Origin: an uncultured Clostridia bacterium
GTDB taxonomy: Bacteria > Bacillota > Clostridia > Christensenellales > Borkfalkiaceae
Direction of reading: 5' to 3'
NCBI GenBank assembly: GCA_934271065.1
Contig: CAKQQQ010000004.1
Location: 90,308 to 154,307 of the forward strand
Length of the DNA: 64,000 bases
The notes beneath the pieces are model-generated. The model worked only from the letters and a program-made list of their open reading frames with translations. It had not been told where the DNA came from and searched no databases. Positions 32,042 to 52,387 of this stretch are shown piece after piece (positions within the stretch are counted from its first letter, which is position 1; the number at the start of each line of letters is the position of its first letter). The translations under genes were made by a program, and so were the position numbers.

Positions 32042-32051
32042 AATTTCTCCT

Positions 32052-32115
32052 TTCGTCGCGGCGGCTATTTACCGTCTCGCGTTTTCGTCGCGGCGGCTAT
32101 TTTCCGTCGCGCGTT
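32052..32115. repeat. Two tandem copies of a 32-bp unit with 2 mismatches. Copy B encodes the last codons and stop of ispDF; copy A fills the spacer up to the radA RBS.
   Basis: 32052-32083 TTCGTCGCGGCGGCTATTTACCGTCTCGCGTT versus 32084-32115 TTCGTCGCGGCGGCTATTTTCCGTCGCGCGTT. Confidence 0.7.
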
Positions 32116-33236
32116 TTAGCCGTAAGGCAGTACGCCTGAACGGCAACGCCTTCTTCGCGCCCGACTAAGCCTATCCCTTCGAGAGTGGTGCAGGTTATCC
32201 CCACGCGGTCGGGCGACAAGCCCGAAAGCCGAGCCACGTTTTCGGTAACGGCGGCGACGTAAGGCGCAAGTTTGGGCTTTTGCGCCATTATAACCGCGCT
32301 TATATTCAGCGGTTCGTATCCGCGCTCTTTAAGCATTTTCAAAACTTCCGCGTATAATATCGCGCTCGAAATCCCCGCGTACTTTTCGTCGGTGTCGGGG
32401 AAGTGTCTGCCTATGTCGCCGAGCGCGACGGAAGACAAAAGCGCGTCCGCAATCGCGTGCAGCAATACGTCCGCGTCGCTATGCCCGAGCAGACCTTTGT
32501 CGTGCGGAATTTCCACTCCGCCCAGAACGAACTTTCTTCCGCTTACCAGCCTGTGCAGGTCGAAACCCGTGCCTGCGCGCAGATTTTCGGACGGGGCGAA
32601 GTCTTCGGGCAGGGTAAGTTTTTTATTCGTCGTTTCCCCAGCGACGGCTCTGCATTTGCCGATATATTTCGCGTACAGCCCCGACTCGTCCGTAAAGGTT
32701 TCCGTTTCGCCCGCAAGCGCGAACGCTTTAAGCAGCGTCGCCTTGTCGAACGCCTGCGGAGTCTGTACGTTACGCACGCCCGCGCGCGACGCGCGTACTA
32801 TATAATCGCCGTCCGCGCCGCGTTCGGTTATGGCAACGGTGTCCACCGCAGGTACGCACGCCACCCCCGAACCGTATTCGGCGGCGGAGCGGACGCATTC
32901 GGAAATCAGGCGTTGCGAAACGAAGGGGCGCGCGCCGTCGTGAACGACCACTATATCGCCCGCGGCGGCTTTTACGCCGCATAAAACCGATTGAGCGCGG
33001 GTATCGCCGCCGCGTACGAAGGTCGGTTTTACGCCGAGTTTTTCCGCTAAGGCGTTAAACGCCGCTTCGTCGCGTTCGGCGCAGACGACCACTATTTCGT
33101 CAACGTCGGGGTTTATCGAAAACGCGTACAGCGTTTTTTGAAAAACGGGCGTTCCGCCCGTCTCTTTAAGCAGTTTATTGAACCCGAAATCGGCGCGTTC
33201 GCCTTTCCCGGCGCATACGAGTACGGCTGTAGTCAT
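32097..33236 (-). CDS. ispDF: Bifunctional IspD/IspF (MEP cytidylyltransferase / MEcPP synthase)
   Basis: The N-terminus AVLVCAGKGER is IspD-like. The C-terminus FDLHRL...GHSDADVLLHAIADALL is IspF-like. Confidence 0.85.
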   Translation of the reverse strand: MTTAVLVCAGKGERADFGFNKLLKETGGTPVFQKTLYAFSINPDVDEIVVVCAERDEAAFNALAEKLGVKPTFVRGGDTRAQSVLCGVKAAAGDIVVVHDGARPFVSQRLISECVRSAAEYGSGVACVPAVDTVAITERGADGDYIVRASRAGVRNVQTPQAFDKATLLKAFALAGETETFTDESGLYAKYIGKCRAVAGETTNKKLTLPEDFAPSENLRAGTGFDLHRLVSGRKFVLGGVEIPHDKGLLGHSDADVLLHAIADALLSSVALGDIGRHFPDTDEKYAGISSAILYAEVLKMLKERGYEPLNISAVIMAQKPKLAPYVAAVTENVARLSGLSPDRVGITCTTLEGIGLVGREEGVAVQAYCLTAKTRDGK

Positions 33237-45605: not shown

Positions 45606-45665
45606 TAAGAATTAAGGAACTTGGAACTTGTGTCTGAGTTCTTTTTCTTTGCGTATCGGTTTCGA

Positions 45666-45694
45666 TTGAAAAAATCCGTTAAATATCGTATAAT
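45666..45694 (+). promoter_or_regulatory. Consensus promoter TTGAAA, 17-nt spacer, TATAAT inside the AT-rich island. It is followed by a strong RBS (AAGGAGAG, 45701-45708) and an ATG at 45715.
   Basis: Hexamers at 45666-45671 and 45689-45694. Confidence 0.55.
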
Positions 45695-45803
45695 AGTGGC
45701 AAGGAGAGATTCAAATGGAAATCAAGGGCTACCATATTATTTCGTTAGAAGCGAAAGATATATACGAACAAGAATTGAAAAACGGCGTGGAGAAAGGGTA
45801 TGT

Positions 45804-46979
45804 ATGTATTGTTTTTTTGACATAGAGTGCGCAAATTGCTTTAATGACAACAATGGCGTTTCTCGTGGTAAGATTTGTGAGTTTGGGTATTTAATTACGG
45901 ATGAGAACTTTAATAAAATTGAATCTGCTGAATATATAATTAATCCCAAAGCACCTTTTGATGAATACGTGTTGAACAACATGTTGGCGTATCCTAAACA
46001 AGTATATTTATCAGCGCAAGATTATAACACTTTCTATGATAAGATAAAACGACTTTTTGAACTCGACGATGTTATATTTATTGGACATACGATAGATACT
46101 GACGCTAAATATTTAAATGACGAGGCGTTACGATATAAAAAAACTTATTTTAATTATAAGTTTTATGATGCAAAGTATATGTATTCCGATTATTCAAACA
46201 TCAAAAAAAGTGTCGGTTTGGAAAAAATAAGCCAGACATTTGGAAATAAAACACGTCATCATGAACATCGTGCAGAAGATGATGCTTTTACAACAATGCT
46301 TATAGTAAAAGAGATGTGCGAAAAATTAGATATGGATTTAATGTCGCTTATAGAGCTTTCTGAAGATTGTGCAGGACAAACGAAAGATGGTAAAATTACA
46401 ACCATAGCGCGAGAAAAAGCACAAGCTAAAAGGGAAGAACGTGAAAGAAACGGAACAGACCATTCTAATAGTTTATATAGCGATAATTACATTAAATTTA
46501 TGCAGTTCTTAGATGGTGTAAAAAGACAAGGAGAAATTATCCCTAGTGTGTTAAATGGAAAAAGTTTGACAATTACACTTAATTATCAAAACGTGCATTA
46601 TAAAGAAATGCTTGCGCTTATTCAATTGCTGAAAAATCACGATTGCATATACAAATTAAAAGCTTCGGAATGCGATTATATGGTAACGAAAGTTGTTCTA
46701 AATGACGACGGAAGTGAAAGAGTGTGTTCAAAATTGAAATATGTAAATCAAGCAATAGAAAACGGTAAGAAAATTAATATAATATCTTTTGATGAATTGT
46801 TAGGAATATTAAAAGTGACAGAATATCAATTATCTCAAATGCCGTTCCCGGACGAAAGCTCTTTTCTTAAAAAAGAGAAAGAACGGAAGTTAAAAAAAGA
46901 TAAAATAAGATATTCAAGTGAAGAAGATATTACTACAACAATAGGAGATATCTTAAAGGCAAAGGGTATAACAATTTAA
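45804..46979 (+). CDS. DnaQ-like DEDDh 3'-5' exonuclease domain protein with a C-terminal BRCT-like domain. The true start may be 45715 via a frameshift in a T7 tract.
   Basis: Exo I FFDIE, Exo II IGHTIDTD, Exo III HEHRAEDDA. The C-terminal segment LNGKSLTITLNY...IYKLKASECDYMVT has a BRCT-like pattern. It sits in a low-GC island. Confidence 0.65.
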   Translation: MYCFFDIECANCFNDNNGVSRGKICEFGYLITDENFNKIESAEYIINPKAPFDEYVLNNMLAYPKQVYLSAQDYNTFYDKIKRLFELDDVIFIGHTIDTDAKYLNDEALRYKKTYFNYKFYDAKYMYSDYSNIKKSVGLEKISQTFGNKTRHHEHRAEDDAFTTMLIVKEMCEKLDMDLMSLIELSEDCAGQTKDGKITTIAREKAQAKREERERNGTDHSNSLYSDNYIKFMQFLDGVKRQGEIIPSVLNGKSLTITLNYQNVHYKEMLALIQLLKNHDCIYKLKASECDYMVTKVVLNDDGSERVCSKLKYVNQAIENGKKINIISFDELLGILKVTEYQLSQMPFPDESSFLKKEKERKLKKDKIRYSSEEDITTTIGDILKAKGITI

Positions 46980-48103: not shown

Positions 48104-48143
48104 AGCCGCGGCTAAGAGAAAACTCTTAGCCGCGGCAATTTTT
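48104..48143. terminator. Bidirectional terminator between the membrane-protein gene and malQ
   Basis: AGCCGCGGCTAAGAG-aaaa-CTCTTAGCCGCGGC followed by AATTTTTT. It is preceded by an AGCCACAGGTG motif. Confidence 0.7.
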
Positions 48144-49591
48144 TAACCGTTATTTTTTTCTGTATATTCGCCGTAATCCTTTGCGAATAACTCTTTTTTA
48201 TATCTGACCACCCAGTTGCCGAGCGTCGACGGTTCGTTTATTCTGTACGCCGAGCCGAGCAGGGCGCAGTCGGCGAACGACAGCACCACTATATCCGATT
48301 TGACCGTTTCGGTAAGGCGTATCATCGCGCGCGCGATCTTTTTATTGCTCGTAAGCGACGACGGGCGGATATTCAGTCGCTTGCCTATTTCGCGTTTCAG
48401 TCGGGCTTTGGCGGATTCGTCAAGCGACGATATATACCCGACGGCGGTGTCGTTGTCGTGCGTACCGACGTAACATACGCTGCGCCGCCCGATATTTTCC
48501 GGCAGGTACGGATTGTTTTCGTTGCCGTCGAACGCGAACGCGAGAACTTTCATTCCGCGTAGCCCCGTCTCTTTCAGCAACTCTCTCACTCCGTCGTCGA
48601 TAACGCCTAAATCTTCGGCTATAAGACGGTTTTTCGGCATTCCTTTCAGAATTTCTCTGCCGTACGCCTTTTCCCATTCCCCGTCTATGGGTTTTTTGCC
48701 GTAAGGAATAGCCCAGTAGCGGTCAAGCCCGCGGAAGTGGTCGACGCGCAGATAGTCGTAACGCGACAGCGCGAATCGCAGTCTGCGTTTCCACCACTTG
48801 AAACCGTCATTTTTCATACGCTCGTAGTCGTAGAGCGGGTTGCCCCAAAGTTGCCCGTCCGCGCTGAAATAATCGGGCGGAACGCCCGCGACCTTTTCGG
48901 GGTTAAGGTTTTCGTCAAGCAGGAATTGCGACGGGTTTTGCCAGACTTCCACGCTGTCCGCCGCGACGTAAAGCGGCAGGTCGCCGAGCAGTTTAATACC
49001 GTTTTTTGCGGCGTAAGCGCGCAGTTTCGAAAACTGATTACCGAGCGTGAATTGTATAAATTCGTAGAACAGAATATCGTCGGCGTAAATTTCGGAATAC
49101 TTTTTCATCGCCGATTTTTTCCGCCGTCTTACGTCTTCGGGGAAGTTTTTAAGTTCGCCGTATTCGTTTTTAAGACAGGTAAACAGGGCGTAATCGAAAA
49201 ACTCGCCGTCGTTGACGAACGACAGAAACTCGTCGGTAAAGTTAAAGCGCGCGTACGCCTTTTTAAGCAGCGCGTAACGCCTGCGGTAGAGTTCGCCGTA
49301 GTTGATTTTAGTCACTTTGCGTTTTTCCGCGTCGAGTTCCGCGTCGGTTATAAGCCCTTTGTCGCGCAGGTCTTCGAGATCGCAAAAATAAGGGTTAAAA
49401 GACTTGTCCGACGTGGTCTGATACGGGCTGTCGCCGAACGAAGTCTGTCCGAGCGGCAGAGTTTGCCATATGGTAAAGCCGGTTTTTACCAGAAAATCGA
49501 TAAAATCGTAACTTTCTTTGCCGAAAGTGCCTATTCCGTAATCCCCCGGCAGAGAGAAGACGGGCATTAAAATTCCGTAATTCTTTTTCAT
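48143..49591 (-). CDS. malQ: 4-alpha-glucanotransferase (amylomaltase, GH77)
   Basis: N-terminus GILMPVFSLPGDYGIGTFG, with GH77 collinearity and length. Confidence 0.85.
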   Translation of the reverse strand: MKKNYGILMPVFSLPGDYGIGTFGKESYDFIDFLVKTGFTIWQTLPLGQTSFGDSPYQTTSDKSFNPYFCDLEDLRDKGLITDAELDAEKRKVTKINYGELYRRRYALLKKAYARFNFTDEFLSFVNDGEFFDYALFTCLKNEYGELKNFPEDVRRRKKSAMKKYSEIYADDILFYEFIQFTLGNQFSKLRAYAAKNGIKLLGDLPLYVAADSVEVWQNPSQFLLDENLNPEKVAGVPPDYFSADGQLWGNPLYDYERMKNDGFKWWKRRLRFALSRYDYLRVDHFRGLDRYWAIPYGKKPIDGEWEKAYGREILKGMPKNRLIAEDLGVIDDGVRELLKETGLRGMKVLAFAFDGNENNPYLPENIGRRSVCYVGTHDNDTAVGYISSLDESAKARLKREIGKRLNIRPSSLTSNKKIARAMIRLTETVKSDIVVLSFADCALLGSAYRINEPSTLGNWVVRYKKELFAKDYGEYTEKNNG

Positions 49592-49599
49592 AAGCAAAA

Positions 49600-49834
49600 C
49601 CTTGCGCAAAGCGGCGTAACGCCGCCTTGCGAATTTGTCGTAAACCGTTCGCGTAGCGCGCCGCTACCTTGCGAATCTGTCGTAAACCGTCGGCGTAGCG
49701 TAACGCCGCCTTGCGAATTTGTCGTAAACCATTCGCGTAGTGCGCCGCTACCTTGCGAATCTGTCGTAAACCGTTCGCGTAGCGCGCCGCTACCTTGCGA
49801 ATCTGTCGTAAAACGTCAGCGCGTCGGTACGCGT
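49600..49834. repeat. Tandem array of a 42-bp unit: four full copies, a diverged fifth copy that encodes the dapL C-terminus, and a partial copy abutting the malQ start
   Basis: Units begin at 49625, 49667, 49709, 49751 and 49793 and all start with CCTTGCGAAT(T/C)TGTCGTAAA. A partial unit at 49600-49624 also starts with CCTTGCG. Units are 90-100% identical to one another. Confidence 0.8.
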
Positions 49835-50938
49835 GCAGAACGCCGAAAATCTGACGAAACCTTCTCCGCCCGATAAAAAGCCGTTGCCGGGCGTGGCGAC
49901 CACGCCGTATTTTTCAAGTAGTTCGTCGCAGAACGCTTCCGAGCCTTGCCCGTCGGGGCAGGACGAAAAGACGTACGGCGAAGACCTGCCGTTATTATAC
50001 CACAAATTCGCCGTTTTCAAAGCGTTTTTAATAACGTCGGCGTTAGTTTTATAAAAATCTATGCGAATTTTCAGCCGCGCCTGCACGTCTTCGTCGAAAA
50101 AGGTCTCCGCGCCGCGTTGCGAAACGTATGATACACCGTTGGTGTTCACGCCCGAAACGCGCTTTGCCGCGTCGTATAATCTCCCCGTTTTTTTCGGCAC
50201 GACGGTGTAACCGCACCTTACGCCCGTAAAACCGAGCGATTTTGAAAACGAGTTGATTTCTATCGCGCATTCGTCGGCGCGCGGAATTTCGTATACGCTT
50301 TTCGGCTCGTCGGCGGCGGCGAACGCCGAGTACGCCGCGTCGAAAATTATAACCGCACCGATTTTAATCGCGTAGTCCACCCATTCGGCAATCAACTCGC
50401 GGCTCATCACGCTTCCGCAGGGGTTCGACGGCGAGCATAAATATATAAGGTCAAAGGTCTTATCGCGCGGCGGAAAGGGTAGAAAACCGCTCTGTAAGTC
50501 GGTTTTCAGGTAATAGACGGAATTGCCGAGCAATACGTTCGCTTCCGCGCCCGCAGGGTACGACGGGGTGGGAAAGCACACTTTCGCGCCGCGCGCGAAA
50601 AGCCGCGCCGCGCCGCCGAGTTCGCCTTTCGCGCCGTCGGTTACGAATATTTCGTCGGGAGCGATTTTTCCGCCGTAGACGAATCGCGATATTTTTTCGC
50701 GTAGAAATGCGTAACCTTCGCTCGGCGGATACCCCCTGAAAGTTCTGCCGTCGCCCAACTCGTCGCAGGCGGTTTTCATCGCCGCTATAGTTTTTTCAAA
50801 CAAGGGAAGTCTGACGTCGCCCACGCCGAGATCCACGGGGCGAATCCCCGTTTTTTCGTAAAACGCCGCGACCTTTTTTTTCAGCGCGGTAAAAACGTAG
50901 TTTTCGGGCAGGGCGGTCACGTTTTCGTTGATATTCAT
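49790..50938 (-). CDS. dapL: LL-diaminopimelate aminotransferase
   Basis: Has the PLP-lysine motif SFSKSLGFTGVRCGYTVVP and a DapL-type N-terminus. Confidence 0.75.
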   Translation of the reverse strand: MNINENVTALPENYVFTALKKKVAAFYEKTGIRPVDLGVGDVRLPLFEKTIAAMKTACDELGDGRTFRGYPPSEGYAFLREKISRFVYGGKIAPDEIFVTDGAKGELGGAARLFARGAKVCFPTPSYPAGAEANVLLGNSVYYLKTDLQSGFLPFPPRDKTFDLIYLCSPSNPCGSVMSRELIAEWVDYAIKIGAVIIFDAAYSAFAAADEPKSVYEIPRADECAIEINSFSKSLGFTGVRCGYTVVPKKTGRLYDAAKRVSGVNTNGVSYVSQRGAETFFDEDVQARLKIRIDFYKTNADVIKNALKTANLWYNNGRSSPYVFSSCPDGQGSEAFCDELLEKYGVVATPGNGFLSGGEGFVRFSAFCTRTDALTFYDRFAR

Positions 50939-51741
50939 ACGCCGCTCTCTCCGCTTAGGGCGTTTTCGTAAAATTCCCCGTCGAAAACTTCCGCTATTTC
51001 GCTTTTAAGCGTCGCCTTGTCGGCGGAAAAGGTTACCGTAGACGTTCCGCCCGCCGTATTTACCCGTATTACGTCGCCCGCGCCGAGTTGCCGCGCGACG
51101 AACGCTATCGCCACCGCGCCGCTTCCGCAAGCCGAAGTATATCCGCTGCCGCGCTCGTATATTACGGCGTTTGCCGAGTTCCCGTCTGCGGTTACGGTTT
51201 CAACGTTTACCCCGTCCTTGAACAAGCCGATGCTTTCAACCGAAAGCGCGTAGTCGCGCGCGGAACGCGCCGCGTCCACCACGACGAGATGTTCGTTGCC
51301 CGCGTTTACGGCGAAAATCCGCTCGCGTTCCGCCGCCAACGCACGTTGCAGTTTGTCGCGGCTTAAAAATTCTTTCGGAACGGGGAAGTCCGCTTCGGCG
51401 AAAATTTTTCCGCCCTGCTCAAACAATCTTACCTTATAATCCGCCGCTTTCGCGGAGACGGTAATTTCGTCCGCGGTAACGCCGAGATATTTTTTTGCAA
51501 AGTACGCCGCGCAACGCATACCGTTGCCGCAGGTCGCGCCTTCCGAGCCGTCCGCGTTGAAAATCCGCATCTTTATCGTATAATCGTCGATTTTTTCGAC
51601 GATAATCAAACCGTCGCCGCCTATTCCTTTGCGGCGGTCGGAAAGTTTAACCGCCGCGTTTTTAAGCGCGGCGTCGGTGCAGTCGTAGTCTTTGATAAAA
51701 ACGTAATCGTTGCCGTTGGCGTGCATTTTCGAGAAAAACAT
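50935..51741 (-). CDS. dapF: Diaminopimelate epimerase
   Basis: N-terminus FSKMHANGNDYVFI, and ATGA overlap with dapL. Confidence 0.8.
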   Translation of the reverse strand: MFFSKMHANGNDYVFIKDYDCTDAALKNAAVKLSDRRKGIGGDGLIIVEKIDDYTIKMRIFNADGSEGATCGNGMRCAAYFAKKYLGVTADEITVSAKAADYKVRLFEQGGKIFAEADFPVPKEFLSRDKLQRALAAERERIFAVNAGNEHLVVVDAARSARDYALSVESIGLFKDGVNVETVTADGNSANAVIYERGSGYTSACGSGAVAIAFVARQLGAGDVIRVNTAGGTSTVTFSADKATLKSEIAEVFDGEFYENALSGESGV

Positions 51742-51827
51742 ATAACAGTATATGCCGATTTGTCGCGCCTGTTGCAAACTTTGTAAAAAAAATTATTAAA
51801 AATTTTTACTTTTTTCGTTAAAAGTAC

Positions 51828-51856
51828 TTGACAAACCGCTAAACGCGGTATATAAT
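51828..51856 (+). promoter_or_regulatory. Consensus sigmaA promoter TTGACA, 17-nt spacer, TATAAT for hsp20
   Basis: Hexamers at 51828-51833 and 51851-51856. Confidence 0.6.
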
Positions 51857-51940: not shown

Positions 51941-52387
51941 ATGAAGAATTATATTGTAAACGCGAATCGTAACGGTAACGAGCTTGACTTTTTCGACGAC
52001 GCCTTCGGCGGATTTTTGAAACCGCTTTTTTACGAAGAAAAACATCACGCTATGAAGACGGATATTAAGGAGACCGAGACTTCTTACGTTCTCGACGTGG
52101 AAGTTCCGGGCTTTGACAAGAAAGACATCGGGGTAACGCTCGAAAACGGCTACCTGACGATCTCGGCGCAGAAGAAGACCTGCGATAAGCCCGAAGAAGA
52201 AGGCAAAGAGAAGAAGAAAGAGAATTATATAAGAAGAGAGAGAAGTTGCTCGCTTTCGCGTAGTTATTACGTCGGCGAAGTAGATAAAAACGCCGTCAAA
52301 GCGAAATACGAAAACGGCGTGTTGACGGTAGAAATACCCAAAGAAAAGCCTGCGCTTCCCGAAACCCACAGCATCGCGATTGACTGA
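51941..52387 (+). CDS. Hsp20/alpha-crystallin family small heat-shock protein
   Basis: Alpha-crystallin-domain protein of 148 aa, with an AAGGAAGG RBS. Confidence 0.85.
   Translation: MKNYIVNANRNGNELDFFDDAFGGFLKPLFYEEKHHAMKTDIKETETSYVLDVEVPGFDKKDIGVTLENGYLTISAQKKTCDKPEEEGKEKKKENYIRRERSCSLSRSYYVGEVDKNAVKAKYENGVLTVEIPKEKPALPETHSIAID

Follow-up and report, generated by a model that had tools for sequence, protein, structure and literature searches.

A 42-nt variable-number tandem repeat between dapL and malQ in an uncultured human-gut Clostridia species

REPs constitute a dispersed, genome-wide family, and in the malE–malF region of E. coli, REP hairpins protect the upstream message from 3′ exonucleases. 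RTS hairpins, which are positioned right after stop codons, are reported to control re-initiation (PMC7518266). MIRUs are dispersed and apparently mobile and harbor an ORF that is coupled to the downstream start through a −4-nt overlap (PMC12548453). In M. tuberculosis, VNTR copy-number variants arise without accompanying SNPs, and VNTR changes are reported to affect the expression of neighboring genes in some cases (PMC5403423).

The array of 42-nt units described here is a VNTR, or minisatellite, by the definition tested for bacterial loci of this kind, with copy number read from short-read assemblies and concordance across assemblers as indirect support. As in other bacterial VNTR/MLVA loci, units of tens of bp are arranged head to tail, copy number is polymorphic in register among near-identical strains, and the flanks are conserved; an origin in slippage or unequal recombination is proposed for both. 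Like the VNTRs of M. tuberculosis, this array changes without SNPs (compare L022 with L019, below). Unlike VNTR/MLVA loci, the unit is recognizable as the 3′ end and stop codon of the upstream gene, the two flanking genes stay in a single reading frame across the array, and two anchored unit types, A with a stop codon and B′ with a ribosome-binding site, enclose mosaic internal units. In what follows, “the window” is the whole 64-kb stretch of DNA that was analyzed, and the coding strand at this locus is the minus strand. The window belongs to a longer ENA contig, ERZ28615052 scaffold_19 (358,640 bp).

Anatomy of the array and its origin in dapL

The array lies in a minus-strand gene cluster composed of dapF (diaminopimelate epimerase; 50935–51777), which overlaps the start of dapL (LL-diaminopimelate aminotransferase, 382 aa; 49790–50938), and malQ (4-alpha-glucanotransferase, 482 aa, starting at the ATG of MKKNYGIL; 48143–49591). 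DapF scores clearly above its NCBIfam cutoff, as does MalQ in TIGR00217 and NF011080; DapL reaches 363.7 bits in TIGR03542 against a cutoff of 364.7, and its nearest named homologues are LL-diaminopimelate aminotransferases of Clostridia MAGs. The only convincing terminator downstream of dapF–dapL–malQ is a strong palindrome found by terminator scan 3′ of malQ (48105–48136), with a 14-bp stem and a T-run. A consensus scan of the minus strand of 49600–49812 returned no terminator-like site, and no promoter-like site was found within the array on the coding strand or next to it; a terminator or attenuator within the array and an internal malQ promoter were rejected on these grounds. With a single convincing terminator after malQ and no such signals in the array, the three genes are probably cotranscribed, with the array inside their mRNA and dapF as the first gene of the presumed unit. 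Upstream, a perfect σ70 consensus promoter on the plus strand (51828–51856; TTGACA, 17 nt, TATAAT; 12/12) precedes the divergent HSP20 gene (51941–52387), and a weaker minus-strand candidate at 51821–51792 could serve dapF–dapL–malQ.

Tandem Repeats Finder reports a period-42 array at 49625–49816 (4.6 copies, 85% matches) with the highest score in the window (300), and five head-to-tail 42-nt units span 49600–49812 on the minus strand. The 20-mer CCTTGCGAATYTGTCGTAAA occurs exactly five times, at 49625, 49667, 49709, 49751, and 49793, spaced by 42 nt; these exact matches confirm the copy starts proposed in an initial annotation of this DNA. Its expected count in dinucleotide shuffles is 0, and no further copies were found in the 64 kb at up to three mismatches. 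Head-to-tail units in the ~10 to 100 bp range characteristic of VNTRs and minisatellites are thus present well above chance (score 300; five copies against 0 expected). Two unit types alternate along the array, and the repeat search picks up this A/B alternation as a higher-order period of 84 nt.

The 42-nt unit corresponds to the last 20 nt of dapL, its stop codon, and a GC-rich, hairpin-prone spacer of ~19 nt. Unit 1 (type A; 49771–49812, minus strand) harbors the 20-mer TTTACGACAGATTCGCAAGG (49793–49812), which is the final 20 nt of dapL, followed by the spacer TAGCGGCGCGCTACGCGAACGG (49771–49792), which comprises the TAG stop and 19 nt; the TAG at 49790–49792 is the dapL stop codon. Unit 2 (type A′; 49729–49770, minus strand) is as type A with two spacer substitutions and contains both a TAG and an ATG (CGAATGG), each in frame. 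Unit 3 (type B; 49687–49728, minus strand) has the spacer CGGCGTTACGCTACGCCGACGG and lacks the TAG, and unit 4 (type A; 49645–49686, minus strand) has the same sequence as unit 1 and is missing from an otherwise matching 4-unit allele (L008–L011). The terminal unit 5 (type B′; 49600–49644, minus strand) consists of the 20-mer followed by CGGCGTTACGCCGCTTTGCGCAAGG and ends in AAGG (49600–49603), the malQ ribosome-binding site, located 8 nt before the malQ ATG (49589–49591) at a spacing that is the same as in relatives. The 25 nt at 49600–49624, recognized at the outset as a partial copy containing the malQ ribosome-binding site, do hold this AAGG. The same reading placed a TAG stop in every copy, which is wrong for the B-type units: a coding-strand TAG is found in units 1, 2, and 4 only, whereas units 3 and 5 have CGG in its place and no TAG in any frame. 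The TAG that is common to every copy lies on the plus strand, antisense to the genes. Finally, the spacer of the terminal unit can pair with the end of its own 20-mer to give a terminal hairpin (49605–49631, minus strand) with a 12–13-bp stem, CGCAAGGCGGCG UUA CGCCGCUUUGCG. This hairpin is followed by CAAGG before UUUUGCUU, with no directly adjoining U-tract of the kind that defines an intrinsic terminator.

The copy at 49793 is the true 3′ end of dapL and encodes FYDRFAR before the TAG. The C terminus reads ALTFYDRFAR here, versus ALEFLDRITASR, ALAFSDRMRYF, or EFSRRMRYFCR at the same position in relatives with 62 to 67% DapL identity. Because the DapL proteins of these relatives end at the homologous position, unit 1 is original coding sequence, and the remaining units were copied from it and from the sequence just downstream; the derivation of the array from the dapL 3′ end, postulated early on, is thereby borne out. 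The relatives in question (L012–L016) retain the HSP20/dapF–dapL–malQ synteny, and their called dapL–malQ spacers (63–114 nt) harbor no tandem repeat and have an A-rich ribosome-binding-site region, which makes the array a recent invention specific to this lineage. A search of 185,579 species-representative genomes with the 20-mer returned only three single chance matches, in Alphaproteobacteria, and a scan of JGI metagenomes returned one true strain (L017) and one unrelated, AT-rich chance match (L018). Both halves of the unit, scanned across the 64-kb window, gave no other locus. With no further loci in the window, the species genomes, or the JGI metagenomes, membership in a dispersed repeat family was rejected.

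Copy-number variation and reading frames among strains

To sample this junction, we combined the DapL variants of one 90% cluster (45 member proteins) with one metagenome scan and recovered 16 complete dapL–malQ junctions from human-gut and other metagenomes, all from the same species (DapL at least 98% identical) and all in short-read assemblies. These 16 junctions represent eight alleles with two, three (three kinds), four (two kinds), five, or six units, so that whole-unit differences of two to six copies occur on conserved flanks. Allele lengths are 87, 129, 171, 213, and 255 nt (45 + 42n) and always differ by exact multiples of 42 nt; the untranslated spacer from the dapL stop to the malQ start ranges correspondingly from 72 to 240 nt. 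Two of these alleles are particularly informative: L022 (three units) and L019–L021 (six units) are identical both throughout dapL (1149 nt) and in the first 250 nt of malQ, so that the array changes faster than point mutations accumulate. Comparison of strains, one of the checks that had been suggested, thus lends strong support to the earlier conjecture of a slippage hotspot with variable copy number.

Across the alleles, we find ten distinct 42-nt units and four terminal variants. Every allele begins with an A-type unit and ends with a B′-type unit, and the internal units are A-type, B-type, or A/B mosaics, as in CGGCGTTACGCTACGCGAACGT, with a 5′ half of type B and a 3′ half of type A. Internal units carry substitutions inside the 20-mer (ACAAC, ACGG, AAAG, and AAGA), and variable sites across units number five in the 20-mer half versus 11 in the spacer half. 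The terminal variants of the window and of L002 and L008 (49605–49631) are distinguished by a group of adjoining substitutions (ACGCCG versus GCTTTG or GCTTTT) that, together with the preceding GCAAGG, turns a 6–7-bp stem into a near-perfect 12-bp palindrome. This is more reminiscent of templated quasi-palindrome correction than of independent point mutations.

The 42-nt unit is equivalent to 14 codons, and, as first proposed, the array stays in frame: in all alleles, a single frame runs from dapL through the array to the malQ ATG, broken only by the TAG codons of the A units, of which four alleles have a single one. Without the A unit, DapL and MalQ would then be joined in frame by a short Arg-rich linker. 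No 1-unit allele occurs among the 16 junctions from the 45-member protein cluster, a small sample; we offer as an explanation that the only stop would disappear with the A unit, yielding this DapL–MalQ fusion. Another frame terminates at a TGA overlapping the malQ ATG (ATGA); a start codon (ATG, GTG, or TTG) is missing from this frame throughout the array in all alleles.

These open frames, together with the A/B composition of the array, shift the first available start codon and thereby account for inconsistencies in public malQ gene calls, which give 515 aa in L008–L011, 488 in L024 and L001, 474 in L019/L026, and 472 in L002. The calls differ by up to 43 residues between strains, and the start supported by homology is that of MKKNYGIL (482 aa). 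The N-terminally extended 515-aa MalQ of the 4-unit allele was rejected; its ATG lies in unit A′ without an upstream Shine–Dalgarno sequence, and the extension is absent from the other alleles and from relatives. We regard it as a gene-calling artifact. Recoding or readthrough of TAG was likewise rejected: the window contains no tRNA, the C terminus of DapL coincides with that of its homologues, and the duplicated ispDF end (see below) has TAA in a 98% strain.

Origin of the variation and alternative explanations

We consider it likely that the array is a lineage-specific, hypervariable minisatellite, driven by slippage or recombination, in the transcribed, untranslated dapL–malQ spacer of an uncultured human-gut Clostridia species, with its end units under selection. 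The array would have originated in one tandem duplication of the dapL 3′ end and adjoining spacer, and would expand and contract by slipped-strand mispairing during replication, by unequal recombination between perfect direct repeats of 20–24 nt, or by both; the hairpin-forming spacers would help either process. Selection would fix just the two end units, the first because it supplies the dapL TAG and the last because it supplies the context of the malQ ribosome-binding site, and internal units would have no sequence-specific role. Anchoring of the ends in this manner can explain why two unit types persist. The lower variability of the 20-mer relative to the spacer half speaks against this reading, as uniform neutral decay does not predict it, although it may reflect the selected end units acting as templates. 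A change in copy number would alter only the length of the dapL–malQ spacer (72 to 240 nt) and the number of stem–loops, and its effect is probably near neutral, amounting at most to a modest change in malQ translation or in the stability of the dapL mRNA 3′ end.

Among the alternatives, the one that survives best is that the units are functional RNA modules, that is, stem–loops that protect the dap mRNA or post-stop RTS elements that insulate malQ, with copy number tuning the dapL:malQ ratio. Like the REP/BIME hairpins of E. coli malE–malF, the units are capable of forming GC-rich stem–loops between cistrons of one transcript, here inside an apparent operon without a terminator; as in RTS hairpins, the stop codon of the A units falls within the stem, close to where it is described in RTS (PMC7518266). 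All units have the capacity to fold into a hairpin. Type A folds into a 5+6-bp stem that contains the UAG (−12 kcal/mol, z −1.2 versus shuffles), type B into a 6-bp stem (−10.9 kcal/mol, z −0.7), and the terminal hairpin of the window allele reaches −21.6 kcal/mol (z −2.6). When the ten unit variants are threaded onto the A-type structure, 89% of cells are paired, and the A-to-B changes at pairs 13–38 and 22–32 become G·U wobbles that are workable only on coding-strand RNA. This G·U pattern and the occurrence of a hairpin in both unit types would be compatible with some RNA-level constraint.

Against this stand the controls. Folding energies of the units fall within the shuffled background (z −0.7 to −1.8), and the whole-array fold is weaker on the coding strand (z −1.6) than on the antisense strand (z −2.9). 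The pairing count of the A-type structure does not exceed that of column shuffles, and the ten unit variants contain no compensatory double change in it. In the B-type helix, one pair is changed on both sides (C-G / U-A), and the changes merely separate the unit types; 18 of 500 and 37 of 500 column shuffles reach the observed pairing and covariation values, a control that does not amount to a probability. The terminal hairpin is strong in only one of the three terminal variants tested (z −0.8 and −0.55 in the other two), its stem being weaker or different in other variants; the best match of the array to an Rfam 15 family scores 18.6 bits against a gathering score of 229, and relatives have the same junction without the repeat. 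Compared with REP/BIME and RTS elements, the predicted hairpins here are no more stable than shuffles and show no conservation by covariation. The initial annotation had raised the possibility of repetitive RNA structures and recommended folding the RNA; of this, the capacity of each unit to form a hairpin holds up, whereas energies and covariation do not stand out, and a conserved RNA structure was rejected on fold z-scores and pair counts that are not above controls. Hairpin potential is retained, possibly without selection for it. On balance, we view functional RNA modules as unlikely.

A related proposal, which we judge slightly less likely still, is that the array acts as a copy-number rheostat, in which each unit adds a stop-proximal stem–loop and slippage reversibly tunes MalQ output or the stability of the dap message. 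If this were true, strains of a gut species would differ in heritable yet quickly reversible settings of starch/maltodextrin metabolism, and, taken with ispDF–radA (below), the lineage would exhibit recurrent, lineage-specific duplication of gene 3′ ends at operon junctions.

An iteron or operator array, suggested at first from the repeats themselves, is very improbable. In its operator form, this explanation holds that the units are binding sites for a dimeric regulator on one face of the DNA. The 20-mer is indeed the better-conserved half of the unit, an imperfect dyad (TTACGA-N5-TCGCAA) is present in the 20-mer of all five copies, and, as a matter of geometry alone, a 42-bp spacing corresponds to roughly four B-DNA turns. 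In the 64 kb, however, both dyad and 20-mer are confined to the array, apart from one chance-level 1-mismatch site, and an operator regulon was rejected on this basis. There is no promoter in or adjoining the array to regulate, and the neighbors are dapF, dapL, and malQ, a chromosomal housekeeping and biosynthetic context, with no replication or partition genes nearby. Copy 1 is conserved because it encodes the DapL C terminus; internal copies tolerate substitutions inside the dyad. Furthermore, the number of sites varies from two to six between near-identical strains, and relatives have none. The initial view that the array is not CRISPR-like is upheld, since what separates the 20-mers is a set of related 22-nt sequences (15/22 or better) rather than unique spacers, and half of the would-be repeat is coding.

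Hardly credible is an origin in the insertion, at the malQ start, of a mobile intergenic repeat of the MIRU type that brought along a coupled small ORF. The array resembles MIRUs in having tandem units within the 40–100-bp range, situated between co-directional operon genes, gene-oriented, and polymorphic in copy number, and one of its frames ends in a TGA that overlaps the malQ ATG. Unlike MIRUs, the dapL unit is found at a single locus and is locally derived: the window yielded no other copy, and the genome and metagenome collections only chance matches elsewhere; half of the unit is native dapL coding sequence with homologues in relatives, so that the unit arose in place. The frame ending in ATGA has no start codon in the array of any allele and cannot provide the −4 coupling, and a coupled mini-ORF of the MIRU type was rejected for this reason.

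Equally remote is the explanation that the array or its copy number is an artifact of short-read metagenome assembly, since, although all data are short-read assemblies and three contigs (L023, L027, and L028) end inside the array, identical 2-, 4-, and 6-unit alleles were each recovered from several independent samples, across different studies, by different assemblers and pipelines (metaSPAdes, MEGAHIT k141, Logan, and the MERR22 pipeline), and the exact repeats are ~55 nt or shorter, below the k of 127–141 used. The junction k-mers of L022 (dapL + A...ACGG + A(AAAG)) are absent from the 6-unit allele, which argues that L022 is not a collapsed copy of it. Recurrence of the same alleles across assemblers, together with contigs that stop inside the array, is what would be expected of a genuine repeat that assemblers handle poorly. 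As to the broken contigs, L027 and L028 have the units of the L026-type allele as far as their contigs extend.

As a lineage-specific minisatellite, the array is an ordinary kind of element that calls for no new mechanism, and nothing found indicates a dedicated function. With eight alleles among seven closely related lineages, the locus offers a high-resolution marker for telling strains of this uncultured human-gut Clostridia species apart. It also troubles both assembly and annotation, in that contigs break inside it and malQ is called with anywhere from 472 to 515 residues. Finally, it provides a clean example of a minisatellite born from the 3′ end of a gene, in which selection would hold just the stop codon and ribosome-binding-site ends.

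A second duplication at ispDF–radA and other strain differences

The second-best Tandem Repeats Finder score in the window (120) belongs to a 32-nt tandem duplication at the ispDF–radA junction (32051–32117, minus strand). Here, a block made up of the last 15 nt of ispDF (32097–33236, minus strand; stop at 32097–32099), the TAG, and a 14-nt spacer is found in two copies, immediately ahead of GGAG, the ribosome-binding site of radA (radA start, 32041). The same two copies occur in three strains whose IspDF is identical, and a 98% strain also has two, which are more diverged and of which the first has TAA as its stop; copy number therefore does not vary among these four strains (two copies each). 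The 70% relative (L033) has no repeat in its 161-nt ispDF–radA spacer.

Like the dapL–malQ array, this duplication is lineage-specific and combines the last codons of a gene, its stop, and a short spacer in one unit, which is copied as far as the ribosome-binding site of the co-directional gene that follows. It differs from that array in having only two copies, fixed in number and diverged, and a unit length that is not a multiple of three. The best local alignment of the dapL and ispDF units matches at 11 of 12 nt (p about 0.04), and a common origin was rejected because this similarity is marginal. We conclude that the two duplications arose independently by events of one kind, that the lineage has a tendency to duplicate the 3′ ends of genes at junctions within operons, and that only the 42-nt duplication has become hypervariable.

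Stop codon usage in the 34 nonoverlapping ORFs of at least 200 codons in the window is 25 TAA, seven TGA, and two TAG, and both TAG-terminated genes, dapL and ispDF, end in tandem duplications. Given the TAA at ispDF in the sister strain and the lack of a suppressor tRNA in the window, we judge this link between TAG and duplication to be coincidental in the 64 kb examined.

One further strain difference lies downstream of malQ. Past a CmpB-like membrane gene, the window harbors an RNase_T/DEDDh-type exonuclease gene in an AT-rich stretch (45621–46979, plus strand), and the corresponding position in the 2-unit strains L002/L003 (6648–7149) is occupied by a TRAM/tRNA-U5-methyltransferase gene. 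The difference suggests strain-specific gene content and perhaps an inserted island.
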